From: an uncultured Flavobacteriales bacterium
GTDB taxonomy: Bacteria > Bacteroidota > Bacteroidia > Flavobacteriales > BACL11
NCBI GenBank assembly: GCA_949372805.1
Contig: CASIBH010000013.1
Coordinates: forward strand, 14,342-78,341
Reading direction: 5' to 3'
Length of the DNA stretch: 64,000 bases
Part shown: positions 45,438 to 64,000 of the stretch, in pieces
How positions within the stretch are numbered: the stretch's first letter is position 1
Layout of the letters: each line of letters starts with the position of its first letter
Made by a program: the position numbers and the translations under genes
The notes under the pieces: generated by a model
Told to the model about the DNA's origin: nothing
Database searches by the model: none
What the model saw: the letters and a program-made list of their open reading frames with translations, nothing else

Positions 45438-46337
45438 ATGAAAAAATATTTACTACTCTTTAGCATGCTTTGTTCTATTTCTTATTTGATAGCACAAGAT
45501 TGTTCAGAATTGTTTTTTTCAGAATATGTTGAAGGATATGGACAAGATAAAGCTATAGAAATATACAACCCAACATTATCAACTATTGACTTAAGTATTT
45601 ATAAAGTAGAGCGTTATTCTAATGGTTCTACTAATAGTTCTGGAGGAGGAGTTACCTCTTTGTCTGGTATGCTTGCTTCAGGAGATGCTTTTGTTTTAAC
45701 AAATGGTGATACTGATACATCAGGTCAATTTGGATATTGTGATCCAGCTCTTTATATTTTAGGAGATATGCATGCAGGACCATATCCATCCCCAATGCAT
45801 ATGAATGGTGACGACGCTATAGTATTATCAAAAGATGCAAGTATTATTGATGTTATTGGAAGAGTTGGTGAACAGCCCTCATCTGGAGCTTGGACTGATG
45901 ATGCTACATCAGGTTTTCAAATGGGCGCTTGGTGGACTGCTCAACATACTTTAGTTAGAAAGAGAACTGTTTTATTTGGTGATAATGATGGGCTTGACTT
46001 ATTTAACCCTAGTCTTGAATGGGATTCATTAGTTGTTGGTTCATGGAATAATTTAGGCTCTCATACTTGTGATTGTATAGACGGCTCTGTTGATATTAAT
46101 GACTTCAAGGAGGTTTCTTATGCGATATATCCCAATCCAGCTAATATTGGAGAAGATATTATGATTGTTGCTAATTCTAATGTTAAAAATATTGAAATTT
46201 TTGATATTTCAGGGAAAAAAGTCTTAACAACAAATTCCAAGAAAATTAATACTGAGAAATTTTCAATTGGTACTTATATCACACTAATTCATCTAAATAA
46301 TGGAGGAGTGATTGAAAATAAGATAATTATTCAGTAA
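45438..46337 (+). CDS. secreted lamin-tail-domain (LTD) protein with T9SS C-terminal sorting domain
   Basis: Signal peptide ending LIAQ. The LTD-like start LFFSEYVEGYGQDKAIEIYNPT..IDLS.YKV resembles the LTD modules of ExeM/NucH-type nucleases. The C-terminus (YPNPANIGEDIMIV ... KIIIQ) looks like a T9SS CTD. Confidence 0.7.
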   Translation: MKKYLLLFSMLCSISYLIAQDCSELFFSEYVEGYGQDKAIEIYNPTLSTIDLSIYKVERYSNGSTNSSGGGVTSLSGMLASGDAFVLTNGDTDTSGQFGYCDPALYILGDMHAGPYPSPMHMNGDDAIVLSKDASIIDVIGRVGEQPSSGAWTDDATSGFQMGAWWTAQHTLVRKRTVLFGDNDGLDLFNPSLEWDSLVVGSWNNLGSHTCDCIDGSVDINDFKEVSYAIYPNPANIGEDIMIVANSNVKNIEIFDISGKKVLTTNSKKINTEKFSIGTYITLIHLNNGGVIENKIIIQ

Positions 46338-46390
46338 ATAATTTAATTTTATAATGCTAATGTTGGATTAGTATTTTTTTAAAAATAAAT

Positions 46391-49141
46391 ATGAAAAAAT
46401 ATTTTTTTATATTATTAGTTTTTAGTTCTGGTTTTGTTCTAAAAGCTCAAACAACTTTAACTGGTAAAATATCTGATGCTAGCAATGGCGAGCCTTTAAT
46501 TGGTGCAACAATAATATATGGTAAGGGAATGGGGACAGCCACAGATTACGATGGTAATTACTCTTTTTTAATTCCTCAAGGAGAGAGAAAAATAGAAGTT
46601 TCTTATGTGGGATATAAGGCAATAAGTAAAATAATATTAGTTACTAAGGAATTACAAATCCTAGATTTCAAATTAAAGACAACTTTGTTAAATGAAGTAC
46701 AAGTTGTTGCTGATATTGCTATAGATCGAGAAACTCCTGTAGCTTTTTCAACAATTCCCATGAAAAAAATTAGTGAGGAATTAGCTTCGCAGGATATCCC
46801 CATGATACTTAATTCAACTCCTGGAGTTTATGCAACACAAACTGGAGGGGGAGATGGTGATGCTAGAATTACAATTAGAGGATTTAATCAGCGAAATGTA
46901 GCTGTAATGATTGACGGGATACCAGTTAATGATATGGAAAATGGTTGGGTATACTGGTCCAATTGGTTTGGTCTGGATGCTGTAACTTCTAATATACAAA
47001 TTCAAAGAGGTTTAGGGGCTTCAAAAATTGCTATTCCTTCAGTTGGTGGTACAATGAATATTTTAACTAAGGGAACTGGAAATAAAAAAGGAGGAACTAT
47101 TAAGCAATCTATAGGTTCATTTGGTAAGTTAAGGACTTCTTTAGGCTATAATTCTGGAAAATTAAATAACGGATGGGGATATACTTTAGCCAGTTCTTAT
47201 AAGAATGGTAATGGCTATGTTGATGAAACCTGGAGTGAGGGTTTTTTCTATTATGCTAAAATTCAGAAAGAATTAGGTAATCATGTTTTAAGCTTTTCAG
47301 TAATGGGAGCTCCTCAAAAGCATGGTCAGAGAGCATATAAAAGTGATATAGCGACTTACGATACTACTCTTGCTCGTTCATTAGGAGATAGTTCTGATTT
47401 CTCTAATAGAATTGTAAATAGAGGTTCTAGCTATAACAAGTATTGGGGTAATTTAGATAGATGGACTCTAGATGCCAATGGAGATACTGTTCATGCTAAA
47501 GAAGTTCTCAATACAAGAATGAATTATTATCATAAACCACAATTTTCATTAAGAGATTTTTGGACTATTAATGATAATTTTTATATTTCGAATATTCTTT
47601 ATTCTTCTTTAGGAAATGGAGGTGGTACAAGAACTGAAAATATTGGACAAGTTGATGGGCAAGTTGATTTACAAACTACATATAATGCAAATGTAGGGGC
47701 AGGTCCTTTTGGCCCAATTATTGATAGTGAATTTTCTGATACAGAGTATAAAACAGGTAGCTATTTAAAGTCTTCAATAAATAATCATTTTTGGTATGGT
47801 GGTTTATCTACTTTAAATTATCTCTTAAATGAAGAGGTATCCATTTCAGGGGGTGTTGATCTAAGATACTATAAAGGTCAGCACTATAGTGAGGTGTACG
47901 ACCTACTTGGGGCAGACTATACTATTTCAACTGATAATCAAAATCAATCTTCATCAGTTAAAAGAGTAGGCGATATCATTGATTATCATAATGATGGTAT
48001 TGTAAAATGGAGTGGTCTATTTTCTCAAGCAGAGTATAGTAATGGAATGTTAAGTGCATTTTTAAATATTTCAGGCTCTAATTCAGCGTATAAACGTATT
48101 GATTATTTTCGTAAAAAAGATTTGATTTTATCTGACACTACAATCCTAGAGGCTTTAGGAAATACAGATACGTTAACTTACAATGGTAATAATTATACAT
48201 TTAACTCCTCTGAAGCACAATTTGCTACAACTAATTGGAAATGGATTAGAGGGTATACCATAAAAACTGGCGCAAACCTTAATCTAGATGAATATAATAA
48301 TGTGTTTTTCAATACAGGATATATTTCAAAAGCACCAAGATTTAGTAATATCTATACTAATAATAATACTTTACAAGAGTATATTAGAAATGAAAATGTT
48401 AAGGCAATTGAAGGGGGGTATTCATTTAGGTCTTCATTCTTTTCTTCAAACTTAAATGCATATTATACAATTTGGGAAAACAAACCTGCAAATATTTCGA
48501 AAACTATTGGAGGCATAAGATATTCTGATGTTGTACCTATGAATGCTTTGCACAAAGGAATAGAGTTGGATTGTTCTTATAAAATTAATAAGAAAATAGG
48601 AGTTGAAGGATTGCTTTCCTTAGGTGATTGGACCTGGACTTCTGGTGGAGAGGCAATCATATTAGATAATTCTAATAATTCGCCTTCTTATGAGCTAGGC
48701 AATACTGATTTCGACACCCTTGTCTATAATGCAAATGGTGTTCATGTTGGAGATGCTGCACAGACACAATATGGATTAAGTTTAAGGTACGAACCAACTT
48801 TTAATTCATATATCAAATTAAGAGGGACGTATTTTTCAGACTACTATTCTGATTTTGATGCATCAACATTAAATGGTGAAAATTCAGGCAGAGAAAGCTG
48901 GGTTATTCCTGCATACCAATTAATAGATTTGCACTGTGGGTATAAATTTAAACTTTCCAATAATCATAATTTAGATATTAAATTGAGCGTACTTAATTTA
49001 CTTGACAAGATATATATATCAGATGCAAATAATAATGATGGATATGCGACAAATCCAAGCTATGATTTTGATGCTAAATCTGCTAGTGTCTTTTTTGGCT
49101 TAGGAAGGAGAATGAGTTTGTCATTAAGACTAAGATTTTAA
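46391..49141 (+). CDS. TonB-dependent outer-membrane receptor (CarboxypepD_reg-like N-domain, plug, barrel); no SusD partner
   Basis: Signal peptide, then TLTGKISDASNGEPLIGATI...VSYVGY (carboxypeptidase-regulatory-like domain) and plug motifs (ITIRGF, VMIDGIPVND). The beta-barrel terminus is ...LSLRLRF. Confidence 0.9.
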   Translation: MKKYFFILLVFSSGFVLKAQTTLTGKISDASNGEPLIGATIIYGKGMGTATDYDGNYSFLIPQGERKIEVSYVGYKAISKIILVTKELQILDFKLKTTLLNEVQVVADIAIDRETPVAFSTIPMKKISEELASQDIPMILNSTPGVYATQTGGGDGDARITIRGFNQRNVAVMIDGIPVNDMENGWVYWSNWFGLDAVTSNIQIQRGLGASKIAIPSVGGTMNILTKGTGNKKGGTIKQSIGSFGKLRTSLGYNSGKLNNGWGYTLASSYKNGNGYVDETWSEGFFYYAKIQKELGNHVLSFSVMGAPQKHGQRAYKSDIATYDTTLARSLGDSSDFSNRIVNRGSSYNKYWGNLDRWTLDANGDTVHAKEVLNTRMNYYHKPQFSLRDFWTINDNFYISNILYSSLGNGGGTRTENIGQVDGQVDLQTTYNANVGAGPFGPIIDSEFSDTEYKTGSYLKSSINNHFWYGGLSTLNYLLNEEVSISGGVDLRYYKGQHYSEVYDLLGADYTISTDNQNQSSSVKRVGDIIDYHNDGIVKWSGLFSQAEYSNGMLSAFLNISGSNSAYKRIDYFRKKDLILSDTTILEALGNTDTLTYNGNNYTFNSSEAQFATTNWKWIRGYTIKTGANLNLDEYNNVFFNTGYISKAPRFSNIYTNNNTLQEYIRNENVKAIEGGYSFRSSFFSSNLNAYYTIWENKPANISKTIGGIRYSDVVPMNALHKGIELDCSYKINKKIGVEGLLSLGDWTWTSGGEAIILDNSNNSPSYELGNTDFDTLVYNANGVHVGDAAQTQYGLSLRYEPTFNSYIKLRGTYFSDYYSDFDASTLNGENSGRESWVIPAYQLIDLHCGYKFKLSNNHNLDIKLSVLNLLDKIYISDANNNDGYATNPSYDFDAKSASVFFGLGRRMSLSLRLRF

Positions 49142-49158
49142 TAAAAAAAATAAAATAA

Positions 49159-51300
49159 ATGAAAAAAATAATATTTGTAGCCTTACTCGCCTTTTCAACA
49201 ATGTCTGTCTATTCACAAGCTACCTTACCTTCCGCGTGGAGTTTCTCCAATGTTAATCTTCCTGCTGGCTGGACTGAATCAGGAACTAATTTTTATACTG
49301 CCTCAGGAAATACACCTCCGGCTATGAAATTTGATGGTACGGGTGATTATTTAATTATTAATATTAATAGTAACCCTGGGGATTTAACTTATTATCTTAC
49401 AGGAAATGGTTTTTCTGGTGGAACTTTTACTGTAGAAGAATCAGATTTTGGAAATGTTTGGTCAACTTTAAATACGCATAATTCACCTCCAAATGCAAGC
49501 TATACAATGTTTACAGATGTTCCACAATCTTCAACTCGATTTATTCGATTTATATATACAAATAAAGTTTCTGGTAATATTGGATTAGATGATGTAAGTA
49601 TTGATATTGGAGCGGCTACTCCAATTCAGGAAATTAATGTAATGCAGTCAGGAAACCCTTTGGTTTCAGGAAGCACTTATATTACTAACTCGCCAGTATC
49701 TACGCTTAACTCTGCAACATTCCTTATTGAAAATCTTGGCACTTTAGATACACTGAATATTACTTCTGCTACAATTTCTGGAGTAAATTCATCTGATTTT
49801 TCTGTGGTTTCTTTTCCAGCAAATGTTATTGCTAATGATTCAGATAGCTTAATATTAAACTTTACTCCTTCATCTTCTGGCACAAGAATAGCAGTTTTAA
49901 ATATTGCCAGTAATGATCTTGATGAGCCTAATTATATTATAAATTTATATGGAATTGGAGGAAATTTAGCCTCAGAGCCAATTCAGCAAGCTTCAAATTT
50001 TGTTTTCACAAATCTTAAAACATTTACTTTTAATACTTCATTTAATGCTACTGATTCAGTTGATGGATATCTCGTTTTAAGAAAAAAAGGTTCAGCACCT
50101 ACTGCATTTCCTTTAGATGGAACTATCTATCAAAGAGGTGATATTATTGGAGATGCTCAAGTAGTCTACAGTAGTAACGTAACAACTGTAACCCCTAATA
50201 ATATTGTAGCAGGTACAGATTATTATTTTGCTGTTTTTAGTTATAATGGCCCAAGTAATTTTAGAAATTATCTTATAAATACTCCGTTATCTGCAAATAT
50301 TACTACACCTAATTCAATGCTATCATCTAGCTTCTACAGTAATTTAAGTACTTCATCTTCTTCTTTTATGAATGATTTACATGCTTTAACTAATCCTCAT
50401 CAAACTCAATACTATAGTTATTATGATGATCTCATGATTGCTTTTTTTGAATCTAGAGATACAACATTAGACAGAAGAGTTGTTACTTGCGTATATAGTG
50501 GTGAAAATAAGATTTATAATGAACCTTTTGATTTTTCTGCAACTGGCTATAGCCGTGAGCATACTTATTGTCATAGCTGGATGCCAACTAATCCTGCACA
50601 AAATCTTCCTGAATATAGTGACTTTCATCATCTTTTCCCATCTAATTTAAATTCTGCAAATATTCTACGTAGTAATAATCCTTTAGGTGAAGTTACTAAT
50701 GTGACATCTTCTTTTTTAGGTTGTAAATCTGGAACCAATAATAACGGTCAAGTTGTTTTTGAACCAAGAGATGAACATAAAGGTGATGCCGCAAGAGCTA
50801 TTATGTATGAGGCAATTTGTTATAACTCAATTAATGGAAATAGTTGGGCTTTACCTAGCTATCAAGATCAAATGATTTTGAAAAACTGGCATTTTCAAGA
50901 TCCTCCAGATAATTGGGAAATTGCAAGAAATGACTTTATCGATTCTATTCAAAATAATAGAAATCCGTTTGTTGATAGTATGAACTACGTATGCTTTATT
51001 GACTTTTCTAATATGTCGTATGATCCTTCTGCTTGTATTCCTTCATCAAATCAAGAGTTGTTAAATCTAGGTTTTGTTACTTATCCAAATCCATGTATTG
51101 ATCAATTAAATATTTATGTTGATGCTACAACTATATCATCATATCAAATAATAGATAATTTAGGCAATATTGTTTTAAGTAATGATGTCAATAATAAAAA
51201 AACAGTAAAAGTGAACACTTCAAAACTTTCTAGTGGATTATACTCTGTCAATGTTGTAACTCCAATTGGTAAAGTTCAGAAAAATATTATTATCCAGTAA
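49159..51300 (+). CDS. multidomain secreted endonuclease I (Vvn/EndA family) with T9SS C-terminal sorting domain
   Basis: Endonuclease I motifs REHTYCHSWMP, DFHHLFPSNLNSANILRSNNPLGEV and EPRDEHKGDAARAIMYE. They are preceded by beta-sandwich modules (a choice-of-anchor-D-like stretch and an FN3-like stretch) and followed by YPNPCIDQLNIYV ... KNIIIQ. Confidence 0.8.
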   Translation: MKKIIFVALLAFSTMSVYSQATLPSAWSFSNVNLPAGWTESGTNFYTASGNTPPAMKFDGTGDYLIININSNPGDLTYYLTGNGFSGGTFTVEESDFGNVWSTLNTHNSPPNASYTMFTDVPQSSTRFIRFIYTNKVSGNIGLDDVSIDIGAATPIQEINVMQSGNPLVSGSTYITNSPVSTLNSATFLIENLGTLDTLNITSATISGVNSSDFSVVSFPANVIANDSDSLILNFTPSSSGTRIAVLNIASNDLDEPNYIINLYGIGGNLASEPIQQASNFVFTNLKTFTFNTSFNATDSVDGYLVLRKKGSAPTAFPLDGTIYQRGDIIGDAQVVYSSNVTTVTPNNIVAGTDYYFAVFSYNGPSNFRNYLINTPLSANITTPNSMLSSSFYSNLSTSSSSFMNDLHALTNPHQTQYYSYYDDLMIAFFESRDTTLDRRVVTCVYSGENKIYNEPFDFSATGYSREHTYCHSWMPTNPAQNLPEYSDFHHLFPSNLNSANILRSNNPLGEVTNVTSSFLGCKSGTNNNGQVVFEPRDEHKGDAARAIMYEAICYNSINGNSWALPSYQDQMILKNWHFQDPPDNWEIARNDFIDSIQNNRNPFVDSMNYVCFIDFSNMSYDPSACIPSSNQELLNLGFVTYPNPCIDQLNIYVDATTISSYQIIDNLGNIVLSNDVNNKKTVKVNTSKLSSGLYSVNVVTPIGKVQKNIIIQ

Positions 51301-51332
51301 ACTTATTCATTACATAAATTGGTAGTAAATAT

Positions 51333-52973
51333 TTATGCCTTTTTAAATATTTTTTCAACTTTCTGTGCAAAATACATTAGGTAAAGAAAGCAAAATACTG
51401 TTACCCAATAAGATTCATGTATACCGATGATATCAGCAAGTTTTCCTTGAATTGGAGGTATAATTGCTCCTCCAAGAATCATCATAACTAAAAAAGCAGA
51501 GCCTTGAGAAGTATATTTTCCCAATCCTTTTATACTTAATGAAAATATAGAAGGCCACATTATAGAGCAAAATAATCCTCCACTTAGAAATGCGAAAATT
51601 GCAACTGTTCCTGTTGTAAATAATCCAACAAGCATTGCTAGAACTCCTAAAAGACCAAATGTTTTTAGTGTTAGTGCTGGCTTGTCTTTGCCAATAAAAA
51701 ATCCTCCAATTTGTATTGCAACACAAATTGCAAAAGCAAAAAGATGTTTCACTTCAAAGCCAGAAATAGCATTAACAGATAAAACAACCCCAAAAGCTAT
51801 ATATGGCACCAATATATAAAGCCATTTTTTTAAAGAAACAGATGGATTAAAAACAGTAATTGCTCCTGTCCATCTTCCAATCATAAGCCCTCCCCAATAC
51901 ATGGATATATATGGAGCAATTTCAGTATCGTTTAATGCTCCAAAAGCTGTAGTTTTTAATAGCTCACCAAGATTACTTTGAATAGAAACTTCTACTCCAA
52001 CATATGTAAAAATTGCTAACATCCCAAGTACAAGTTGTGGGTATTGCATAGCACCCCAACCCTCAGACTTTTTCTTTGCTAAAAAGTTAGAAAATAACAA
52101 TCCCCCAACAACAACAAATAGTCCTAGCAGTGATAGATTTAGTATCATTGAATCAGATGCTTCACTTAAAGATTGACCATCTTCTAGACCAACGTACTGA
52201 TTAAATACTTGATAGAAAATTAAAATCAATAGTATTGTAATTGAGATAAGTGATGTCATAGCTTTTGAAGCACCAAGAAAGCTTGAGTCTTCTTTTCCTT
52301 CAGGAAGTTTCTTTGAGAAATGAAATAGTGCTGCTGCTGCAATAAATAATATACCAACAGCTATATATAAATATTGGACAACTGTAAGAGTTATATTTTT
52401 TTCAGAAATTTCTTTTACTAAATCAATTTCTGCACTTGCAGCTGTTCCGAATAATGCTAAAGAGACAACAATTGGTCCAATAGCTGTACCGAAAGAATTA
52501 ACTCCCCCTGCTAAATTTAATCTATGTGATCCTTTTGATGGTTCCCCTAGTGAAATAGCAAATGGGTTGGCAGCTGTTTGTTGTAGAGAAAAGCCAAGCC
52601 CAACGATAAAAAGAGCTCCTAAAATATATGTAAAAGCAGAAGAATCTCCAGGGCTAGCTCCATTTACTGCTAAAACCATAGCGCCTGCACCAACTGCAGA
52701 CAGCATTAACCCTTTAACTATACTACTTTTAAATCCCCAAGAGTTCATGATATCAGTATTCCTAACACTAGAAAATATAAAAAGCATTAAAGCTCCAATA
52801 TAATAAGCTCCGTAAAATGCAAAATCAATTAATTGGCTTTGAAATTGATCCAGACTAAAATAGGTCTTACAAAAAGGAATGAAAACACCATTACTTGCCG
52901 CTATAAAACCCCAAAAAAAGAATACTGTAACTAAAGTAAGTAGTGCTTGTTTATAATTTTTATTATCGCTCAT
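51333..52973 (-). CDS. sugar MFS transporter (FucP/GluP/NagP-like)
   Basis: 546 aa with about 12 helices. The N-terminal region [19 protein letters not shown] and the [13 protein letters not shown] motif resemble glucose/galactose/fucose:H+ symporters. Confidence 0.75.
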
Positions 52974-52978
52974 TTTTT

Positions 52979-55873
52979 TTATTTAATTGTTAATTCATCA
53001 ACAAATAACCATGTTTTTCCTCCAGCACCAAGATGCCATTCTGGACATGTTCCATAGTTTTCTGCTGATATCTTTATATATCTTGCAGTATTTTTTTTAA
53101 ATTCTAGATGAAACTCTTCTTGAAAACTACCTTCTATTGTATCAGGAAAAATACTTTTTATTTCACCCAAATAATTATATTTCTCACCATCTGTAGAAGT
53201 CCAATATTTAACAGTCTTTGGATAAAAAATCCATGATCGAATATCTTGATGACATCCCAAAGATATAGATTTAATTTCTTTAATTTTATTTAGATCAACT
53301 ACAAGTTCTAAATTTTCTCTATATCCCTGCCAATTTCCTGTTCGATAATTTGAACCTCCTCTTAGTTGATCAATTAACGTTTTATTACCTGCAGCTGCAT
53401 ATTGATTAGCATAATTACTATTAATTGTGATGCTTTTGCTATTGTCAATTTTAAAATATTTACTTGAAACGTTTTTACTCTTTTTATTATTTTTAAAGGA
53501 ATAAGCATGAATTTCTGCATCTTTTTGTAAAAGAATTGGATCAATATATTCTTTAAACTTAGATTCGTTGATTGAGAAGAATATTTTTGCACTATCAACT
53601 GTTGAAAGAGAAATTGAAATATCTTTAGCAAAAGTTTGACTCTCAGCAATAAAAAATGGCACAGGAACAATAATATTTTTTTCTATTTTAGAAATAGGTA
53701 TTTCATTTTCGCCCCAATCACTTGGATTATTGCCCATTTCAAATATTATTTTCCCTCCATCTATAATAGATTTATGATTTAAATAGCTTGAGTTAAATGC
53801 TTCTCCGTTTAATGAGGCGCTTTGAATGTAAATATTATTATCACTTAGATTTAAAGCAGTTATTTCAAATTTATTCCCATTCTCTAAATTAATTATTGCG
53901 TTATTAAAAAATGGAGTTCCAATTGTATAATAATCAAGACCTGGAGTGACAGGGTAAAAACCTAAACTACTCAAAACATACCATGATGACATTTGACCAC
54001 AATCTTCATTTCCAGATAATCCATCGGGAAGATTAGAATATTGTTCATTCATTATTTTTGCAGCATATTTTTGAGTTTTTGAAGCTTTTCCTATATAGTT
54101 ATATAAATAAGCCATATGATGACTAGGTTCATTTCCGTGAGCATATTGGCCAATTAAGCCAGTAACATCTGGCTGATGTCTTCCTGAAGTTGTACTTTCA
54201 GCTTCAAACATTCTATCAAGATGTTTTTCATACAACTTATTGCCACCTTTTAAAATAATATGCCCTGTAATATCTTGAGGTACAAAAAGTGAATATTGCC
54301 ATGCATTTGCTTCAGTGTAATTAAAGTTAACCTCTTCTGGTTTAAATGGTCCAAACCATGAGTATTCATTTTTACCTCTAAAAAAACCAGTTTTTGGATC
54401 ATATAAGTTTTTATAGTATTGTGCTCTCTCATAGAATCTTTTCGCGATCTTCTCTTCTCCAAGAGAATCCGCCATTATTGCAATACACCAATCGTCATAT
54501 GCATATTCTAAATTTTTTGAAACTGATTCAGGTTCATCGCTTGCTTTAATATATCCATTTTCTTTATATGCTTTTAGGCCATGAGTATTACTTTCTGCTG
54601 ATTTCACCATTGCTTCAAGTGCTAGCTTTACATCATAATCTCTAATTCCTTTCATATATGCATCTACTATTACTGGAATTGCATGATAACCGATCATGCA
54701 ATCTGTATAATTTGCGGCTAACTCCCAGATTGGCAGCTTTCCTCCATCTTTATATTGCCTTAGAAGTGTTCTTATAAATTGATTTGTCCTTTCAGTTTCT
54801 AAAATTGTAAATAGTGGGTGAGTTGCTCTAAAGGTATCCCACAAAGAAAATACTGTATAATGTTTATCTGAAGAATTATGTTTTTTAAAATCCATTCCGA
54901 GATAATTGCCGTTTATATCGTTATAAGTATTTGGAGCAAGAAATGAATGATAAAGAGCTGAATAGAATATTTCCTTTTTTTCGTCTGACTGTGTAGTAAT
55001 TTCTACCTTTTTTAGTTGATTATTCCAAGTCTTTTGCGCATTATCTTTACACTCAACAAAACTTAAGTCGCTTATTTCTTGTAAATTTTCTAAAGCTCCT
55101 ATACTATCTACAGCTGAGATAGCAATTTTTGTTATTAATGGTTGGTCTATTTTTCCAAAGCTAAGTCCTAAAATATTTTTATCATCATTAAGAATAAATT
55201 TTTTGAAAGGTTGAGAAAATTTTATTATAAAATGAATTCTTTGATCTCTTGCCCACTCGCTAGAAAATCTAAAACCTGAGATTGTTAAACTATCAATAAT
55301 ATTTATCTTATATTTTAATAGTTTGTCTCTATGTTGTAGATCTAAAATAATATTTGCTGAATCATTTGAGTTAAATGTATACTTATGTATTCCACTTCTA
55401 AGAGCTGTTGTCAACTCAACATTAATATTGTAATCCTGTAATAATACTTGGTAATAGCCTGGGCTAGATGTTTCATTTAAGTGTGAAAATTTTGAACTAT
55501 AGCCTAATTGATTAATTGTATTTTTATTTGAGTTTTTAGATTCTTTGACTCCATTAGTTAACTTTATTTTTCCACTTGTAGGCATTAATAGAATGTCTCC
55601 ATAATCTGATATTCCGGTTCCGCTTAAGTGTGTGTGTGAGAAACCATAAATAATAGAGTCAGAAAAATGATAACCTCCACATCCGTCCCAGCCTTCAAGT
55701 CTAGTGTCTGGACTTAGTTGCATCATTCCAAATGGAAGTGTAGCCCCAGGGTAGGTATGTCCATGACCGCCTGTACCTATAAAAGTATTTACATAATCTA
55801 TGGGTTCTTTTTTAATATTATCACATGCACAAGTGATAATAGCTATTAAAATTAGTAAATTTAATTTTTTCAT
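52979..55873 (-). CDS. GH92 alpha-mannosidase lipoprotein with C-terminal discoidin-like domain
   Basis: [30 protein letters not shown] is the GH92 N-terminal signature. Lipobox ITCAC. The last ~165 aa are homologous to the GH20 C-terminus. Confidence 0.9.
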
Positions 55874-58050
55874 TTTATTATTATTTCGTCAATAAATATC
55901 CAGCAATCTGATCCTGCTGCTGGATGTTTTTCTGGTAATTTTCCAAAGTTTTTTGCAATTAATTTAATAAATCTTGCACTTTGTTTTTTATTGAATTTAA
56001 ACTCTTTTTTAAACTTTCCTTCTTGCATCGGATTTGAATTAAAGTTTTTTTGATCATATATAATAAAATCTTTTCCATTACTAGAAATCATTATTTCAAT
56101 TTTCTTTGGTATTATAATCCAAGATAAGTTATACTGAAAGAATGAAGTTTTGATTTCTGAGAACTCAAGTTCTTCCTCTAAGTCTATAATTACTTCAACA
56201 TCCTTCGCAAAAAATCCTTGCCACTGACCATCTCTAAAGTTGGATAAATCCCCAAATATTCCATTAGATAGACTATTGTTTCCATTGGCTGGATAATTTT
56301 TATCATATGCAGTTAAATAATTTATCTTTTTTCCTAGTGCTAGGTGCTTATTTAATTTGATTTCTTTTGAAGCTGGATTATCTCTAATAGAATTTACTTC
56401 TTTTACATTTATTATTGCACTCTTATTTATTATAATTGGTCTTGTATACTTTTGCCAGTTATTATCATCAATTTTATATTTTAAATCCATCTTTTTATAA
56501 GATTTAAATATTTCTACGCGAAAATTATTGTTAATTATTTTAATATCATAATCAATAGGAGTTTTCTCATATCCATATTTTACTCCAAATAAATCTAACT
56601 TAGGATAGTGGTTTCTAACTCTACTTTGAAAATCTTTAAAATCTTTATTATTTTCACTCCAGAGAACTTCAGCCATAGCTAATATCCGTGGAAATACTTT
56701 TGAATCAATAGATTCTTGAGGAGCATGTTCACTCCACATATTGCATTCTCCACCAATTATATGTTTACTTTCTTTTTCTGTCAAACCTTTTGGTATTGGT
56801 TCAAAAGAATAGACTTTTTCTAGATTAATTGCCTGTAAATCATAATCAAAATAGCAATGTGATGTAGGTGACATAATTACATCGTGATTTTTTTGAGCCG
56901 CTAATATTCCACCGTCTATTCCTCTCCAAGATTGAATTGTAGCGGAAGGGGCTATTCCACCCTCAATTATTTCATCCCATCCAATTATTCTTTTTCCATT
57001 TTTTGAGATAAATTTTTCAATTCTTTTGATAAAATAAGATTGTAATTCATGCTCATCTTTTAGTTTTTCATCTCTTATCCTTTTCTGGCATTTAATACAT
57101 TCTCTCCACCTGTATTTAGGCGCTTCATCTCCTCCAATATGAATATATTGGGATGGGAAGATTTCCATAACTTCAGTAAGAACATTTTCAAGAAAAGTAT
57201 ACACACTATCATTACCTGCACAGTAAATATCCTTAAAGACACCCCAATCATTCTCAACTTCTAAGGAGTCTCCTGTACATGAAAGATATGGATATGAGGC
57301 TATAGCAGCTACAGAATGACCAGGAAGCTCAATTTCAGGTATAATCTCAATATGTTGTTTTTTTGCATATTCGATGATTTCTATTAAATCATCTTTAGAA
57401 TAAAATCCACCATATTTTTCTCCATTTTTATTTATTCTCCATGCTCCTATATCGGTTAGCTTAGGGTACTTTTCTATAGCTATTCTCCATCCTTGGTCCT
57501 CTGTTAAATGTAAATGAAGAATATTCATTTTATGAAATGCGAGTAAATCTATATAGCGTTTTATAAAATCTTTATCCATAAAATGTCTACAGCAGTCAAG
57601 TAGCATCCCTCTCCATTTAAACCTTGGAAAATCATGAATTTCTAAACATTGAATTTCTAAATTTTCAGTATTTTTTTTATAGTTGATTGGAAATAATTGC
57701 CTTAGACTTTGTATCGCGTGCATGCACCCCTTTCCATTTGAAGCTTCAATGGTAATTGTATTTTTTGAAATATTTAAATAATATTCTTCATCTTCTAGAA
57801 AAATATTCTGCTTTAATACGATATAGTTTTTACTTCCTGTTAAATCTAATGAGATTATATTTTTTAAAAAGTTTAGTTCATTAATAAACAAACTATCAAA
57901 CTTAATTCCGGTATTATTATTTAAACTAAATACCCCAGATTCTAATATCATCTTCTGAGGTTTTGGAATAATAGTTAAGTTATCACCCTTTTTTTTTTCA
58001 TTTAAACATGAACTAAAGAAAAATAAAATTAGAATGAGTAATCTGATCAT
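55870..58050 (-). CDS. GH20 beta-N-acetylhexosaminidase lipoprotein with C-terminal discoidin-like domain
   Basis: HLHLTEDQGWR and HIGGDE catalytic motifs. Lipobox FFSSC. ATGA overlap with GH92. Confidence 0.9.
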   Translation of the reverse strand: MIRLLILILFFFSSCLNEKKKGDNLTIIPKPQKMILESGVFSLNNNTGIKFDSLFINELNFLKNIISLDLTGSKNYIVLKQNIFLEDEEYYLNISKNTITIEASNGKGCMHAIQSLRQLFPINYKKNTENLEIQCLEIHDFPRFKWRGMLLDCCRHFMDKDFIKRYIDLLAFHKMNILHLHLTEDQGWRIAIEKYPKLTDIGAWRINKNGEKYGGFYSKDDLIEIIEYAKKQHIEIIPEIELPGHSVAAIASYPYLSCTGDSLEVENDWGVFKDIYCAGNDSVYTFLENVLTEVMEIFPSQYIHIGGDEAPKYRWRECIKCQKRIRDEKLKDEHELQSYFIKRIEKFISKNGKRIIGWDEIIEGGIAPSATIQSWRGIDGGILAAQKNHDVIMSPTSHCYFDYDLQAINLEKVYSFEPIPKGLTEKESKHIIGGECNMWSEHAPQESIDSKVFPRILAMAEVLWSENNKDFKDFQSRVRNHYPKLDLFGVKYGYEKTPIDYDIKIINNNFRVEIFKSYKKMDLKYKIDDNNWQKYTRPIIINKSAIINVKEVNSIRDNPASKEIKLNKHLALGKKINYLTAYDKNYPANGNNSLSNGIFGDLSNFRDGQWQGFFAKDVEVIIDLEEELEFSEIKTSFFQYNLSWIIIPKKIEIMISSNGKDFIIYDQKNFNSNPMQEGKFKKEFKFNKKQSARFIKLIAKNFGKLPEKHPAAGSDCWIFIDEIIIK

Positions 58051-59027
58051 TTAATAAAAGATGATGAGTCAATCATTTTATTTTGACTATTTTGATATAG
58101 TGCATAATTAAAACCTTTTTGAACAGCGTAAGCGCCATGCTCCCCTTTTTTGTTTATTGCTAGGTAGCCAATTTGCATGTCTTTATAATTTTGGTTTTTT
58201 ACAATTCTAGAGATACCTTCTTCGCACGCCTCTTGAGGACTTGCTCCTTGCCTCATGAGCTCTACTATTAAAAATGATCCAAGTGTTTTCATAACAGCTT
58301 CCCCAACCCCTGTGGCACAACATCCGCCAATTTCATTATCAACAAACATACCAGCTCCAATAATTGGAGAATCTCCAACCCTCCCATGCATTTTCCATGC
58401 AAGACCTGATGTTGTACATGCTCCAGAAATATTATTTTTTTGATCAATAGCAAGCAGACCAATTGTATCATGATTCTCAACATTTATTATTGGCTTATAT
58501 TTAGAGTCTTTTAACCACTCTTCCCACTTCTCTCTCGCTTTATTTGTAAGTAAATCTTCTTTATGAAATCCGTTTTTTAATGCAAATTGTAAAGCGCCTT
58601 CACCAGAAAGCATTACATGAGGAGTTTTATCCATTACTTTTCTTGCTACAGAAATAGGATGTTTGATATTCTGAAGAAAACTTACGGAACCACAGTTACC
58701 AGTGTGATCCATAATACATGCATCTAAAGTGACATTTCCATCTCTATCTGGCCAGCCGCCATATCCAACACTTGTACATTCTGGATCTGCTTCTGCCACG
58801 CATACAGCAGCCTCAACGGCATCAATTGCATGAAAACCTTTGTTGATTAATTTATATGCTTCAGCATTTGCAGCTAATCCATGTTGCCAAGTAGAAATAA
58901 TTATTGGTAATCCCTTTTGAGAGTAAAGATTTTGTTTTTGTATTTTAGAGGAAGCTATTTTTGGTGTAATGATTGCACCTAGAGCTCCAATTGATGTTTT
59001 TTTAATAAAACTTCTTCGATCTGACAT
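58047..59027 (-). CDS. N4-(beta-N-acetylglucosaminyl)-L-asparaginase (glycosylasparaginase, Ntn hydrolase), Tat signal
   Basis: Twin-arginine motif SDRRSFIKK and the autoprocessing site HDTIGLLA (Thr nucleophile). Overall it resembles the characterised Elizabethkingia (Flavobacterium) enzyme. Confidence 0.9.
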   Translation of the reverse strand: MSDRRSFIKKTSIGALGAIITPKIASSKIQKQNLYSQKGLPIIISTWQHGLAANAEAYKLINKGFHAIDAVEAAVCVAEADPECTSVGYGGWPDRDGNVTLDACIMDHTGNCGSVSFLQNIKHPISVARKVMDKTPHVMLSGEGALQFALKNGFHKEDLLTNKAREKWEEWLKDSKYKPIINVENHDTIGLLAIDQKNNISGACTTSGLAWKMHGRVGDSPIIGAGMFVDNEIGGCCATGVGEAVMKTLGSFLIVELMRQGASPQEACEEGISRIVKNQNYKDMQIGYLAINKKGEHGAYAVQKGFNYALYQNSQNKMIDSSSFIK

Positions 59028-59029
59028 AG

Positions 59030-61456
59030 TTATTTATTTAAATCATAAAGAGACCAAATTAACAAATTTTCTCTATTAGATAAATTTCCTGTAAAGTTAA
59101 TAGTGTATTCAAAATTTGGTAATAATGTCAAATAGTTAGATTCAAATTTTATTCCTTGTAGTTCAAAGTAAACTTGAAATGCTGGTTTATCCACTGAGAT
59201 TGTTATTTGATTCTTTGACCAATCTATATTGTATGTTGGTTTAAGAAATTTTATATCCTTCACTTTTGATGTAAATATTGTTTTAGTAGAAATTTTTTGT
59301 TTTTTTAAATGGGCAATTATGAATTCATTTTGTCTATTATTTTGATAATTATTAATTATTTTATGACTTCCAAATTTTTTTAGATTAACATTTATTTTTT
59401 TAGTTTCTTTAGTTTTTACTCCATTTAAGTTATAACTATTAATAAATAAAGTATCTGTTATTTGCTGTTTTTTGTTAGACATGATCCAAATAGAATAATT
59501 TTCAGTATTGTTTTTAGAAATTGAAAGAGCAATTGGTGAAAATACATCTCTAGCAACATAGTGAAGAGCTTTCCAGTTCCCATAATAATCAATACTACTC
59601 CAGGAGGCTACAGGCCAACAATCATTTAATTGCCAATAGAGTGTTCCCATACAATATGGTTGAGACCTTCTGTGTGCTTCCAGACCTATTCTCATTCCTT
59701 CTGCTTGTAAAATTTGACTAGCATATATAAATTTATGAAAATCGGTAGGCTGATTATATTCTCTATTCATATATTCTTGAATTAGAGAATTTCCTCTTGG
59801 ATGTTTCTGATGAGAAAGCATAACTTTTGAATCTAAAAGCCAGTCTTTTTCGCTACTAAATTTTTTAATAGTAGATAGTTCAGGAAAAGATTGAAAACCA
59901 AACTCACTCATAAAACGAGGAACTTTTTTTTCGAATGTTGAGAATGGTTGAGAATCATGCCAAACTCCCCAATAGTGCACATCTCCTTCAAGATGATGAT
60001 TTTTATCCCCTCTTCCAAGTTTAGGAGAACTCTCCCAATATGGAACATCAGTTAATTTTTTTACCTCAGATGGGAGAATCTGATTAAATAGTTTTTTGTA
60101 GCCAAGGCTAATCTTATTTATTTCATTTTTCGATCGTGAATTTTGCCACCCCCAATTTTGCCAAGCTTCAGCAATTTCATTATTTCCACACCACAGTACT
60201 ATTGAACTATAATTTCTTAATCTTTTGATATTGTCCATTGCCTCTAGCCTCACATTTTCTAAAAAACTTTCATTGTCTGGGTACATTGCGCAAGCAAACA
60301 TGAAATCTTGCCAAACTAAGATTCCTAATGAGTCACATAATTTATAAAGAATATCCTCTTCATAAATTCCTCCACCCCAAACTCTAATCATATTCATATT
60401 TGCTGAAATAACTTCTTCAAGAATCTTCTGGTATCTTTCTTTACTAACATTATTTTGAAAGTTATCTTGTGGTATATAATTTGCCCCTTTCATAAAAATT
60501 GGCTCACCATTTATTTCAAAAAAGAAATTTTCTCCAATAGAATCTTTCGATGTGTTCAGCTTGATAGTTCTAAGGCCAATTTTTTTGTTTATACTGCTAA
60601 TTATCTTATTATTTTTCTTTAATAAAGTTTTAATATCATATAACTTTTGCTTTCCGTATCCATTAGGCCACCAAAGTTCCGGTTGTAATATCGAGTAATT
60701 TAATTCTATGTTTTGTAAACCCTTCTTTAGTTGTAGATCATATGACTGATTATTTATTACTATTTGGTATGATGACTTTTCAAGCACATCAATCTCAAAA
60801 TTAAACTTAAGTTGTGCGATTGAGTCTAAAATTTCTGTTTGTTCTATATACAGATCTTTTATTTCTGAATTTTTATGAGCTTTTATTTCGATTGGCCTCC
60901 AAATTCCTGAAACTTTAATTTTTGGACCCCAATCCCATCCATAGTGAAAGCCTGCTTTTCGTGTATGAACTTTACTGCCTCCAGGAAGCTTATATCCTAA
61001 CTCTTTTTCTTTTACCACTTCTTGTTCAGAGGCATTTTTAAAATTTATAACCAAAGTATTTTTTTCTTTCAATACATTTTTTAAAGGAATTACCCATTTT
61101 CTAAACATATTATCAGCTCTTAAAATAATCGAGTCATTTAAAATTACTTCTGCATATGTATCTAAGCCATGAAATGTGATCGAATGCTTATTAGCTGATA
61201 GAAAATTATTATTTAATGAGAAATTAGTTTTATAAATCCAGTCTTTATCACTAACCCACTGAACAGAATCTTCATTAGTTCCATAGAAAGGGTCTGGAAT
61301 TAAGTTGTGAAAAAGTAAATCAGAAAAATTGTTTCCAGGAACATTTGCTTTTCTCCACACATTTTCATTCTCAAAGGTCCAATTATCTAATGTGATAATC
61401 TTATTGTCAGAGCTGCAATTACTAAAAAAAATAAATATAAAAAAGTAGAGTTGCAA
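59030..61456 (-). CDS. GH2 beta-mannosidase lipoprotein
   Basis: N-terminal pattern WTFENE..WRKANVPGNNFSDLL..LIPDPFYG, WCGNNE, and FMSEFGFQSFP. About 800 aa. TTG start 2 nt after the cutC stop. Confidence 0.85.
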   Translation of the reverse strand: MQLYFFIFIFFSNCSSDNKIITLDNWTFENENVWRKANVPGNNFSDLLFHNLIPDPFYGTNEDSVQWVSDKDWIYKTNFSLNNNFLSANKHSITFHGLDTYAEVILNDSIILRADNMFRKWVIPLKNVLKEKNTLVINFKNASEQEVVKEKELGYKLPGGSKVHTRKAGFHYGWDWGPKIKVSGIWRPIEIKAHKNSEIKDLYIEQTEILDSIAQLKFNFEIDVLEKSSYQIVINNQSYDLQLKKGLQNIELNYSILQPELWWPNGYGKQKLYDIKTLLKKNNKIISSINKKIGLRTIKLNTSKDSIGENFFFEINGEPIFMKGANYIPQDNFQNNVSKERYQKILEEVISANMNMIRVWGGGIYEEDILYKLCDSLGILVWQDFMFACAMYPDNESFLENVRLEAMDNIKRLRNYSSIVLWCGNNEIAEAWQNWGWQNSRSKNEINKISLGYKKLFNQILPSEVKKLTDVPYWESSPKLGRGDKNHHLEGDVHYWGVWHDSQPFSTFEKKVPRFMSEFGFQSFPELSTIKKFSSEKDWLLDSKVMLSHQKHPRGNSLIQEYMNREYNQPTDFHKFIYASQILQAEGMRIGLEAHRRSQPYCMGTLYWQLNDCWPVASWSSIDYYGNWKALHYVARDVFSPIALSISKNNTENYSIWIMSNKKQQITDTLFINSYNLNGVKTKETKKINVNLKKFGSHKIINNYQNNRQNEFIIAHLKKQKISTKTIFTSKVKDIKFLKPTYNIDWSKNQITISVDKPAFQVYFELQGIKFESNYLTLLPNFEYTINFTGNLSNRENLLIWSLYDLNK

Positions 61457-61458
61457 TC

Positions 61459-62145
61459 TTATAAAGATTTAACTTTTTGAACAGCCATTTTAACGTTTTC
61501 ATATTTTGTTTCTAATTGTCCATTTTGTACTAGCTCTTTTCCTGAAAGATGAAACTCTCTAATTCCTATCTTATAAAGTGATTCGATATTATTATGATTA
61601 ACACCTCCTCCAGCAATTATATTAATCCTGTTTTTTGCTAATTTAACTATTTGTTTAAGATTTTCTATCCCATCAATTACATTTTCTTTTTGACCAGATG
61701 TTAGTATATAATCACATTTACAAGATATTATATCCTCTAATGCTTGTGGCATATTTAATACGCAATCAAATGCTCTATGAAATGTTACTTTCATAGGTTT
61801 GGCGGCTAACACCATAAGCTTTGTTTGTTCTTTGTTTACGGATAAGTTAGGATTTAATGCTCCAATTACAATCCCATCACATTTTAAATTTTTGCAGAAT
61901 TGTATATCTATTAAAATTTGTTGAAACTCTAATTTAGTATATTGAAATTGGTTAGCTTTTGGAAGAATTAGGATATGAATTTTTATATCTGATAATTCTC
62001 TAAGTTTGATTATTTCACTATTTGAAGGAGTAATGCCTCCCTGCTCTAAATTTTGACATAGTTCAATTCTTGAAGCTCCTGCTTTTATACCATTTAGTGC
62101 TGATTGAATTGAATTTGCACAGCACTCTAAATTAGTTATAGGCAT
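61459..62145 (-). CDS. cutC: CutC family TIM-barrel protein (biochemical function unknown)
   Basis: 228 aa with RIELC and VTFHRAFD motifs characteristic of the CutC family. No signal peptide. Confidence 0.85.
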   Translation of the reverse strand: MPITNLECCANSIQSALNGIKAGASRIELCQNLEQGGITPSNSEIIKLRELSDIKIHILILPKANQFQYTKLEFQQILIDIQFCKNLKCDGIVIGALNPNLSVNKEQTKLMVLAAKPMKVTFHRAFDCVLNMPQALEDIISCKCDYILTSGQKENVIDGIENLKQIVKLAKNRINIIAGGGVNHNNIESLYKIGIREFHLSGKELVQNGQLETKYENVKMAVQKVKSL

Positions 62146-62165
62146 TTGTTGAATTTACAGATTTT

Positions 62166-63500
62166 TTACATCTTAAAATCTTCCATGAATTTTGTTGTAT
62201 AATTTCCATCTAAGAAATCTGGATGTTTCATCAGTTTCTGATGAAATGGTATTGTTGTTTTTACTCCTTCGATTACAAATTCATCTAAAGCTCTTGTCAT
62301 TTTAGCAATTGCCTCCACTCTTGTTTGTGCTACTGTAATAACTTTTGCAATCATTGAGTCATAGTATGGAGGTATTGTGTAATTTGCATATACATGAGTA
62401 TCAATTCTTACTCCATGACCTCCAGGAGCATGAAAGTTTGTGATTAAACCTGGGCATGGTCTAAAGTCTTTTTCAGGATCTTCTGCGTTAATTCTACACT
62501 CAATTGCATGAAGTTGTGGAAAATAATTTTTACCAGATATCTTAGTTCCTGCCGCAACTTTAATTTGCTCTTTAATAAGATCAAAATCAACTACCTCCTC
62601 TGTTATAGGATGTTCAACTTGAATACGTGTATTCATTTCCATAAAATAGAAATCTCTATGTTTATCAACAAGAAATTCAACTGTACCAACACCTTCGTAT
62701 TTAACTGCTTCTGCAGCTTTTATTGCTGCTTCTCCCATTTTTTTTCTCAGCTTATCGGTCATAAATGGAGAGGGAGTTTCTTCAGCTAATTTTTGATGTC
62801 TTCTTTGTATTGAACAATCTCTTTCCGAGAGATGTGCAGCTTTTCCTGTATTATCACCAATTATTTGTATTTCAATATGTCGAGGATCTTCAATAAACTT
62901 TTCCATATACATACCATCATTACCAAATGCAGCCTTAGACTCGGTTCTCGCACTATCCCAAGATTCTTCAAGATTTTCTTCTTCCCAAACTAATCTCATT
63001 CCTTTTCCTCCTCCTCCTGCTGTTGCTTTTAACATAACTGGATAGCCAATTTCAAGTGCAATTTTCTTACAATTGTTAAAATCTTTAATTATTCCTTTCG
63101 ATCCAGGGATAGTTGGCACACCAGCTTTTTTCATTGTTTCTTTAGCTGATGCCTTGTCTCCCATTCCATCAATCATACTTGGAGAGGCTCCAATAAATTT
63201 AATATCATTTTCAGAACAAATTTTTGAAAAATTTGAGTTTTCCGCTAAAAATCCATATCCAGGATGAATTGCATCTGCATTAGTTATTTCGGCAGCAGCT
63301 ATAATATTTGGAATATGTAGGTATGATTCAGCACTGGAAGCAGGACCTATACATACTGCTTCGTCAGCAAATCTAACATGTAAGCTATCTTTATCAGCTT
63401 TAGAGTAGACTGCAACTGTAAGAATACCCATTTCTTTACAGGTTCTAATTACACGTAATGCAATTTCTCCTCTATTAGCTATAAGAATTTTATTAAACAT
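62166..63500 (-). CDS. accC: acetyl-CoA carboxylase biotin carboxylase subunit
   Basis: [20 protein letters not shown]-terminus and the ATP-grasp glycine loop GGGGKGMR. 444 aa. Confidence 0.95.
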
Positions 63501-63523
63501 ATTATTTAATATTTAAAAGTAAA

Positions 63524-64000
63524 TTATGAAGGGTCCACTAAAAATAGTGGCTGGTCAAATTCAATTGGAGATGCATCATCAACTAGTATTTTAACAATTT
63601 TTCCTGAAATTTCAGATTCAATTTCATTAAATAGCTTCATTGCTTCAACGATACATATGACATCTCCCTCATTTATTTGATCTCCAACACTTGCAAATGG
63701 TGGCTTGTCAGGCGATGCACTTCTATAGAAGGTTCCAATCATAGAAGATTTTATTTCTATAAGATGGCTGTCTTCATGCTCATCAGAATCTGATTTTATA
63801 ATCGCTTCTGAAGATATATTTTCTGTTGTAGGTATTGGTGTTGTAACTGAATGAACAGGAACTTGTTGAATAATATTTACAGGCTCTTCAGCTTCTCCTC
63901 TTTTCTTTTTTGCAGGAGATTTAATTGATATTTTAATATTATCAATTTCTAAATCAACTTCTGTAGCTCCAGACTTTGCTACAAATTTTATTAATTCTTG
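63524..64000 (-). CDS. accB: acetyl-CoA carboxylase biotin carboxyl carrier protein (5' end beyond the right edge)
   Basis: Biotinylation motif VEAMKLFNEIE. The frame stays open from the track Met (63742) up to base 64000 (QELIKFVAKSGATEVDLEIDNIKISIK...), so the gene is truncated by the window. Confidence 0.85.
   Translation of the reverse strand, partial: QELIKFVAKSGATEVDLEIDNIKISIKSPAKKKRGEAEEPVNIIQQVPVHSVTTPIPTTENISSEAIIKSDSDEHEDSHLIEIKSSMIGTFYRSASPDKPPFASVGDQINEGDVICIVEAMKLFNEIESEISGKIVKILVDDASPIEFDQPLFLVDPS

Follow-up and report, generated by a model that had tools for sequence, protein, structure and literature searches.

The stretch analysed here, 64,000 nucleotides of DNA from an uncultured Flavobacteriales bacterium (GenBank assembly GCA_949372805.1, contig CASIBH010000013.1, positions 14,342 to 78,341; hereafter the window), carries a gene for a protein of the CutC family amid genes for the degradation of N-glycans. 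Our central finding is that CutC genes, in this genome and in others, lie beside genes for amidases acting on the link between asparagine and N-acetylglucosamine (GlcNAc) far more often than expected by chance. On balance, we lean towards the view that CutC is a cytoplasmic triosephosphate isomerase (TIM)-barrel enzyme serving the degradation of the N-glycan core attached to asparagine and not a protein for copper handling. The family is conserved from bacteria to humans, four crystal structures are available, and the only phenotype associated with it was withdrawn in 2014. The copper phenotype of Escherichia coli cutC has been reassigned to the small RNA MicL (PMC4102768), as a preliminary description of the window, made from the sequence alone, had correctly stated.

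The cutC gene of the window

61459-62145, minus strand: cutC, intact open reading frame (ORF) of 228 amino acids, TIM-barrel protein of family PF03932, no signal peptide

The window contains a genuine, intact gene of the CutC family. Its product matches the Pfam family CutC (PF03932) with an E value of 4.3e-57 and 193.3 bits (gathering cut-off 23.3) over profile positions 3-201 of 202. Among the PDB entries, human CUTC (3iwp) is the best sequence match (1.8e-38), and the proteins of Shigella (1twd), B. anthracis (4r9x) and S. agalactiae (2bdq) were also found. An AlphaFold 2 (AF2) model built with 76 homologues reached a mean predicted local distance difference test score (pLDDT) of 97.6, and Foldseek aligned this (beta/alpha)8 barrel with solved CutC structures (3iwp, 1twd, 1x7i) at template modelling (TM) scores of 0.92-0.95. 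Against the NCBIfam equivalog model for E. coli CutC (NF008603), the protein scores 160.8 bits, which is under the cut-off of 311 bits.

The CutC proteins of E. coli/Shigella, human, B. anthracis and S. agalactiae thus share fold and family with the window protein, and nearly all invariant residues are common to them. The genomic contexts, in contrast, differ. In E. coli K-12 (locus L105, 1958441-1959846), cutC is located 13 nt after yecM and before torYZ, and micL is annotated inside cutC, whereas the window gene is surrounded by N-glycan genes and an Rfam search of positions 51000-64000 gave no match for MicL at E values up to 1. The sole Rfam hit in 51-64 kb, to mir-103 with an E value of 0.52, was judged spurious.

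Amidase genes next to cutC in other genomes

One genome per GTDB species was scanned for the CutC motif [ML]x[VFI]TFHRA[FS]D. A 20-sequence alignment (A2) was used for the scan, a 76-sequence alignment (A1) being too diverse. More than 600 pattern hits were obtained, and the 80 best matches to the window CutC were kept together with 10-kb flanks, which biases the sample towards Bacteroidota. ORFs were called simply, the window proteins were searched in the flanks (phmmer), the neighbours were clustered and assigned to families at Pfam thresholds, and a census of the immediate neighbours was taken.

Of the 80 loci, 23 contained a homologue of glycosylasparaginase (AGA) no more than 10 kb from CutC; it was the immediate neighbour in 20 of these, lying upstream on the same strand in 18 (often at a distance of 1-20 nt) and divergently in 2. 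The Pfam census of immediate neighbours returned Asparaginase_2 in 20 of 79 upstream genes along with glycoside hydrolase family 20 (GH20) enzymes (10), GH2 mannosidases (7) and domains of peptide-N-glycosidase (PNGase) F (2). For a family with 1-3 copies per genome, a location within 10 kb would arise by chance in about 0.5-2% of loci, and adjacency given presence in about 12%. Observed proximity and adjacency are far beyond these values, although nominal P values overstate the case as the loci are not phylogenetically independent. When all N-glycan genes are considered (AGA, PNGase, GH20, GH2 or GH92), 39 of the 80 loci contain at least one within 10 kb of CutC. The linkage spans Bacteroidota, Xanthomonadales, Ignavibacteria and Acidobacteria. 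The association with glycosylasparaginase, GH2 and GH20 outside this genome, which the preliminary description had put forward for checking, proved clearly positive.

Gene order varies between lineages. AGA is followed by CutC in all nine loci from Sphingobacteriaceae, in Rufibacter, Puia and Sediminibacterium and in two Xanthomonadales (L046 and L054, from Pseudoxanthomonas and a Rhodanobacteraceae genome), while the two genes are divergent in Maribacter flavus and Spongiivirga. Chitinophaga exhibits the order major facilitator superfamily (MFS) permease, ROK kinase, AGA, CutC, phosphodiesterase, GH20 and NagB-PIG-L protein. In Polaribacter, Tenacibaculum, Winogradskyella and Psychroserpens the order is GH20, CutC, GH2; AGA and GH92 are encoded on the opposite strand in the first three of these genera and neither is found within the flank in Psychroserpens. 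GH20 recurs beside CutC in Proteiniphilum and Dysgonomonadaceae, and AGA was never found near CutC in the Bacteroidales loci sampled. Two divergent CutCs that were picked without regard to context (P0168, P0248) are both encoded directly after an Asparaginase_2 gene.

Two further types of amidase, unrelated to AGA, occur beside CutC. In Winogradskyella (L034, 10674-11867), the gene for a full-length PNGase F with a lipoprotein signal and both Pfam domains (E values around 1e-50) overlaps the CutC stop codon. In an Ignavibacteria locus (L019, 10772-12442), a protein with the C-terminal domain of PNGase F begins 4 nt after CutC, and an acidobacterial locus (L053, 2233-4185) presents CutC, a DeoR-type regulator and then PNGase A (PF12222, E value 2e-53). 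While the tight coupling of cutC to glycan genes noticed earlier was confirmed, its tightest partner is an Asn-GlcNAc amidase (AGA, PNGase F or PNGase A) and not, as supposed at the time, the mannosidase.

In a neighbour-joining (NJ) tree, which is star-like at depth, carries no support values and was used qualitatively, amidase-linked CutCs appear in at least seven places, and human and Shigella CutC nest among them. A separate glycan-related subfamily is thus not apparent. In the same rough tree, the Xanthomonadales CutCs L046 and L054 group with the Sphingobacteriales protein from Olivibacter (L024). Even with support values lacking, this suggests that the AGA-CutC pair may have moved between phyla as a unit.

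Several other genes recur next to CutC. In eight Bacteroidales loci (L011, L015, L044, L058, L066, L069, L073 and L081), a recurrent and mostly immediate neighbour of CutC is a lipoprotein of about 870 amino acids that combines a transglutaminase core with a Big_1 domain; in L073 its ORF begins inside the CutC ORF. The transglutaminase core is, we assume, also the Pfam family of eukaryotic PNGase, and we take this as a lead only. Phosphoesterases of three unrelated families are encoded just downstream of CutC in AGA-CutC loci, namely Phosphodiest (L010, L031, L033), Exo_endo_phos (L010, L021, L031, L033, L061) and Metallophos (L034, L040, L059). In three Bacteroidales genomes (L012:6779-7888, L049:2664-3731, L072:8973-10004), CutC is closely preceded by a gene for a cytoplasmic type I L-asparaginase, and the AGA-CutC pair of Pedobacter-type loci by genes for a YbdL-like aminotransferase and a YafV-like omega-amidase. 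These neighbours hint at an asparagine/aspartate theme besides the sugar theme. CutC is also found fused to other domains (P0136, P0212, P0142, P0173, P0233), these being GNAT (two proteins), ADP-ribosylglycohydrolase, FkbO/RidA-like and cytidylyltransferase-like. The genomic contexts of two fusions (L093, L098) proved uninformative, and the fusions serve as leads only.

Fold and invariant residues of CutC

Residues E7, R26, E28, C30, R61, H123, R124, D127, S150, G151, G179, G181 and H199 are invariant across 80 CutCs, and in the AF2 model they are all located at the C-terminal ends of beta-strands, as is the case in TIM-barrel enzymes. The nearest folds outside the family identified by Foldseek are MJ1099, the pyridoxal 5'-phosphate (PLP) synthase Pdx1, PdxJ, TrpF and ThiE, with TM scores of 0.64-0.79 and E values of 1e-7 to 3e-10; all of them bind phosphosugars. 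CutC possesses glycine-rich loops after beta6 and beta7, where phosphate-binding TIM barrels hold phosphate, as well as four conserved arginines. However, identity to those enzymes is only 10-17% and their catalytic residues are not shared, so that the resemblance hints at the class of substrate and not at membership. ROK kinases, NagB-PIG-L proteins and DeoR regulators recur near CutC. Taken together with the phosphosugar folds, the glycine-rich loops and the four arginines, these neighbours lead us to infer that the substrate, taken up by import, is a small anion derived from a sugar and probably phosphorylated.

How do these data bear on the annotated function, i.e., a copper(I)-binding or copper homeostasis protein whose position among glycan genes is incidental? 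This explanation has the historical annotation on its side, C30 is invariant and its partner Cys9 is present in the window CutC. However, 24 of 151 aligned sequences have another residue in place of Cys9, and alanine occupies this position in both Xanthomonadales CutCs. No copper-related Pfam family ranks in the top 25 families of the genes immediately flanking CutC in the 80 loci, whether upstream or downstream, and the amidase association far exceeds chance. The E. coli phenotype, moreover, was due to MicL and not to the protein (PMC4102768), and the RefSeq name of the E. coli protein is now just 'PF03932 family protein CutC', with 'copper homeostasis' dropped. We thus regard this explanation as very unlikely.

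The N-glycan array of the window

In the window, cutC is part of an unbroken array on the minus strand (51.3-64.0 kb) in the order accB, accC, cutC, GH2, AGA, GH20, GH92, MFS. Intergenic gaps across the array range from -4 to +23 nt, and those of the genes downstream of cutC from -4 to +5 nt.

63524-64000, minus strand: accB, biotin carboxyl carrier protein (Pfam Biotin_lipoyl); the intact frame continues past the window end, 164 amino acids in relatives

62166-63500, minus strand: accC, biotin carboxylase (Pfam Biotin_carb_N, CPSase_L_D2, Biotin_carb_C), directly upstream of cutC

59030-61456, minus strand: GH2 beta-mannosidase, 808 amino acids from a TTG start (Pfam Glyco_hydro_2_N2, Glyco_hydro_2, Ig_mannosidase)

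58047-59027, minus strand: glycosylasparaginase (AGA; Pfam Asparaginase_2, E value 1.5e-69), twin-arginine signal MSDRRSFIKK

55870-58050, minus strand: GH20 beta-N-acetylhexosaminidase (Pfam Glyco_hydro_20, E value 3.5e-115), lipoprotein signal

52979-55873, minus strand: GH92 alpha-mannosidase (Pfam Glyco_hydro_92, E value 1.3e-171), lipoprotein signal

51333-52973, minus strand: MFS sugar permease of the glucose/galactose/fucose/GlcNAc type (Pfam MFS_1), last gene of the array

The mannosidase, hexosaminidase, glycosylasparaginase and sugar permease recognised in the initial reading were all substantiated by Pfam and PDB matches. The GH2 protein matches the solved beta-mannosidase 2je8 with an E value of 5.8e-194. 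AGA matches the Flavobacterium glycosylasparaginase (3ljq/1p4k) at about 1e-119, whereas isoaspartyl peptidases reach only 1e-38. Among the NCBIfam models, the MFS protein scored 185 bits with gluP and 111 bits with NagP and was also matched by fucP, all under the respective cut-offs; MFS homologues are present in the AGA-CutC loci of Chitinophaga and Flavobacteriaceae. The N-termini of GH2, GH20 and GH92 are of the lipoprotein type and that of AGA carries a twin-arginine signal. CutC, which has no signal peptide, is thus the sole cytoplasmic non-transport protein of the cluster, just as originally described. From their family assignments, the exported GH92, GH2, GH20 and AGA enzymes should together be able to reduce a glyco-asparagine to mannose, GlcNAc (released first as GlcNAc-amine) and aspartate. 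No SusD-like gene of a SusC/SusD pair adjoins the array, and the cluster does not contain an endo-glycosidase.

Convergent with the MFS gene, a second group of genes occupies positions 45438-51300 on the plus strand. It encodes a lamin-tail-domain protein and an endonuclease I protein, each with a type IX secretion system (T9SS) sorting domain, and between them a TonB-dependent receptor. This set looks like an extracellular DNA-scavenging module.

46391-49141, plus strand: TonB-dependent receptor

A proposed role for CutC

We envisage that glyco-asparagine is trimmed outside the cytoplasm by the exported GH92, GH2 and GH20 enzymes and by AGA, exported via the twin-arginine translocation (Tat) pathway, and that the products would be imported, an MFS permease being encoded alongside. 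CutC would then act after import on a small anionic, probably phosphorylated, sugar derivative, i.e., GlcNAc, its 1-amine or the 6-phosphate of either compound. The window cutC gene would be co-transcribed with the glycosidase genes; in conspecific genomes, its end and the start of the mannosidase gene share an overlap of 44 nt. A cytoplasmic step on an imported product, and not copper handling, had already been suggested in the preliminary description. The amidase association, the invariant polar residues on the catalytic face of the barrel, the related phosphosugar-binding folds and the lack of a signal peptide would all fit this tentative proposal.

A specific reaction can be formulated, and we offer it as a long shot. 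AGA, PNGase F and PNGase A share a product, a glycosylamine, which is either GlcNAc-1-NH2 or a glycan ending in it. Such an amine probably hydrolyses only slowly near neutral or alkaline pH, the conditions of seawater and cytosol. CutC might hydrolyse GlcNAc-1-amine or its 6-phosphate to GlcNAc or GlcNAc-6-phosphate and ammonia, perhaps after import and 6-phosphorylation. As human CUTC is the closest solved relative of the window protein, the same glycosylamine activity might act downstream of cytosolic NGLY1.

In principle, the close linkage could also be explained by a different function: CutC may serve the amidase itself, by assisting folding, self-cleavage or Tat export of AGA or by protecting the cytoplasm from enzyme that becomes active prematurely. 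It would fit this idea that 28 of 29 AGAs encoded beside CutC (loci L001-L096 and the window) begin with a twin-arginine signal of the form RRxF[IL]K, which implies that they fold in the cytoplasm and are exported already folded. The spacing between AGA and cutC is often only 1-20 nt, and E. coli cutC lies beside torYZ, TorZ presumably being a Tat substrate as well. On the other hand, CutC is also conserved where AGA is lacking, namely in humans and some bacteria, its residues are conserved in the manner of an enzyme active site, and it adjoins PNGase F, GH20 or GH2 where AGA is not nearby. Known Tat chaperones have folds unrelated to that of CutC. A helper function for the amidase is accordingly improbable in our opinion. 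An action of CutC on aspartate, an idea prompted by the asparaginase, YbdL-like and YafV-like neighbours, is a minor possibility; PNGase neighbours release no free aspartate, and some organisms have CutC but not these partners.

The junction between cutC and the mannosidase gene

In the window, a TTG at 61456-61454 begins 2 nt past the end of cutC and provides the readable start of the GH2 gene. The literal observation that cutC ends 2 nt before a TTG start was therefore accurate, but this arrangement stems solely from a single-base insertion.

61448, minus strand: insertion of a single base (C on this strand), shifting the reading frame of GH2 in its signal-peptide region

61500-61502, minus strand: ancestral ATG start of GH2, 44 nt inside cutC and out of frame in the window owing to the insertion

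Over 5543 nt, the window and the Tara contig L087 are 99.55% identical, and the extra base at 61448 is the sole indel. It is absent from all eight aligned relatives. A total of 14 related contigs lack the insertion, comprising 12 near-identical ones from independent samples (L087-L092 and L099-L104) as well as L085 and L086, whose CutCs are 87% and 78% identical to the window protein. In the 14 relatives, GH2 starts at the ATG inside cutC, which results in a gene call of 823 amino acids, and this native start encodes the usual lipoprotein signal MKTLKWLFKKLNLYKIATYFFIFIFFSNC. The frame opened by the ATG at 61502 reaches a stop after 26 codons in the window, and the TTG-initiated GH2 protein has a signal peptide without a charged N-region. 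The extra base reflects either an error of the assembly or a mutation private to the window. Note that the native arrangement is an overlap, and coupling between the two genes is therefore tighter, not looser, than it appears in the window.

The upstream side of cutC

62146-62165, minus strand: spacer between accC and cutC, 20 nt (6-8 nt in relatives)

The spacer between accC and cutC is too short to hold a promoter. No terminator-like site was found between the two genes on this strand, in a scan that performed at chance level overall. Neither was a Bacteroidota -7 box (TAnnTTTG) detected within 1.2 kb upstream of cutC, with the motif scan being weak and its overall counts at chance, nor a TTTG-N17-23-TAnnTTTG motif near cutC, the counts for which were again at chance overall. 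The scans for sigma-70 promoters and terminators also yielded chance numbers (76 found, 71 expected), and these models are unsuited to Bacteroidota. The gene may be transcribed by read-through from the fab/acc genes or from a promoter of unrecognised type. The description of cutC as the first gene of the operon was not borne out; accC, on the same strand, stops just 20 nt before it, and neither a terminator-like site in between nor a promoter motif upstream was found in these scans.

This proximity raises the question of whether cutC functionally belongs to the fatty acid genes (fabH, accB, accC) and the glycan genes merely follow. The gap to accC is only 20 nt in the window and 6-8 nt in relatives, and a promoter motif upstream of cutC was not found, which speaks for it. 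However, accC adjoins cutC solely in the marine clade of the window. In the 80 other species loci it was adjacent in none, and the two AccC-like matches lay about 5.6 and 7.6 kb away. In addition, cutC overlaps the mannosidase start. A functional tie to fatty acid synthesis is thus extremely improbable, and the related suggestion that cutC belongs to the accBC transcript only found no support.

A clade-specific variant of CutC

61948-61965, minus strand: codons 61-66 of cutC, L-P-K-A-N-Q in place of R-P-R-G-G-D in the family; beta3 loop on the catalytic face

While E7, R26, E28, C30, H123, R124, D127, S150, G151 and H199 are kept, the window CutC differs from the family in the beta3 loop, which reads LPKANQF and not RPRGGDF (R61 to Leu, R63 to Lys, G65 to Asn and D66 to Gln). 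All 80 species loci have R61, and 78 of them have R63. Among the 149 sequences that have a residue at these positions, 147 keep both arginines, and only the window protein and its closest representative, P0121, carry Leu and Lys. Among about 230 CutCs, the exchanges R61L and R63K are confined to this marine clade, i.e., to CutCs down to 57% identity. Furthermore, the C-terminus of the window protein is about 20 amino acids shorter in the alignment than is usual in the family. Substrate binding is probably altered or weakened by the loss of R61 and R63.

These features could indicate that the CutC of the marine clade is a decaying or re-purposed relic, the ORF of which is kept mainly because the mannosidase start lies in its 3' end. 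The two exchanges, unique to the clade, would in that case entail a loss of the ancestral activity, and the C-terminal deletion, the rank of CutC as the fastest-evolving protein of the cluster and the 44-nt overlap with the GH2 start in conspecifics would all be in keeping with such decay. Several observations speak against it. All other invariant residues are retained, the structural model is folded with confidence and none of the relatives examined has an interrupted ORF. For cutC, the ratio of non-synonymous to synonymous substitution rates (dN/dS) amounts to about 0.19 in the comparison with L085 and 0.13 in that with L086, near the 0.10-0.12 of the GH2 gene; these closer relatives were used because values against L001 and L002 were rendered unusable by saturation of dS. 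The window cutC is thus under purifying selection. Finally, in L001 (5724-7458), the CutC of which is 57% identical, GH2 is absent and CutC lies directly before AGA in an otherwise unchanged array, so that cutC has been retained despite the absence of the mannosidase gene. Overall, a relic appears rather unlikely.

Returning to CutC as an enzyme of N-glycan core breakdown, a number of points weigh against this proposal. Lacking R61 and R63, the window CutC is a poor representative of its family, and it is the fastest-evolving protein of the cluster (57-62% identity to relatives compared with 64-88% for its neighbours). Binding of Cu(I) has been reported for both human CUTC and bacterial CutC. 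While CutC is cytoplasmic, its amidase partners (AGA and the PNGases) are exported, such that any link between them requires a transport step. No glycan genes lie near CutC in E. coli or in roughly half of the loci sampled, among them all Bacteroidales of the Bacteroides/Prevotella type, and the role of the family may therefore exceed N-glycans. The 80 loci themselves are best matches only, rich in Bacteroidota and not independent phylogenetically. The step proposed for CutC is a prediction from context, fold and conservation.

Discussion

The cluster described here is not a new kind of system, and it is the mechanism of CutC that is inferred. As in the sequential degradation of the N-glycan core in lysosomes and in Bacteroidota, it provides alpha-mannosidase, beta-mannosidase and beta-hexosaminidase followed by glycosylasparaginase acting on GlcNAc-Asn. 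It differs in that it lacks SusC/SusD and an endo-glycosidase and lies behind genes for fatty acid synthesis. Moreover, the described N-glycan pathways assign no step to CutC, whereas the window cluster contains it.

A close parallel in the literature is provided by two comparative-genomics papers on Xanthomonadaceae: in Xanthomonas, cutC (XAC3091) and an asparaginase gene (XAC3092) lie with the nix N-glycan cluster and cutC has been treated as a copper gene (PMC6718126, PMC5700972). The pairs of L046 and L054 match this published one. There, too, cutC is located beside an Asparaginase_2 gene and near genes for GH2 beta-mannosidase, GH20, a GH92-type mannosidase and other N-glycan hydrolases. 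Apart from belonging to another phylum, that cluster differs in that its papers link cutC to copper resistance only (PMC6718126, PMC5700972). The co-location of cutC and asparaginase is therefore already in print, while a functional link was not drawn there. The asparaginase of X. campestris has been reported to lie outside the GlcNAc regulon (PMC4173781). In the literature searched, the coverage of which was incomplete, we found no proposal of a glycan-related function for CutC.

The link to amidases narrows the candidate substrates of CutC to GlcNAc, GlcNAc-1-amine and their phosphates. If the proposed role is correct, thousands of 'copper homeostasis' annotations would need correction, the catabolism of N-glycans would gain a step and human CUTC would acquire a candidate role. 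For marine carbon cycling, the array indicates that streamlined flavobacteria carry a compact kit for the use of glyco-asparagine.

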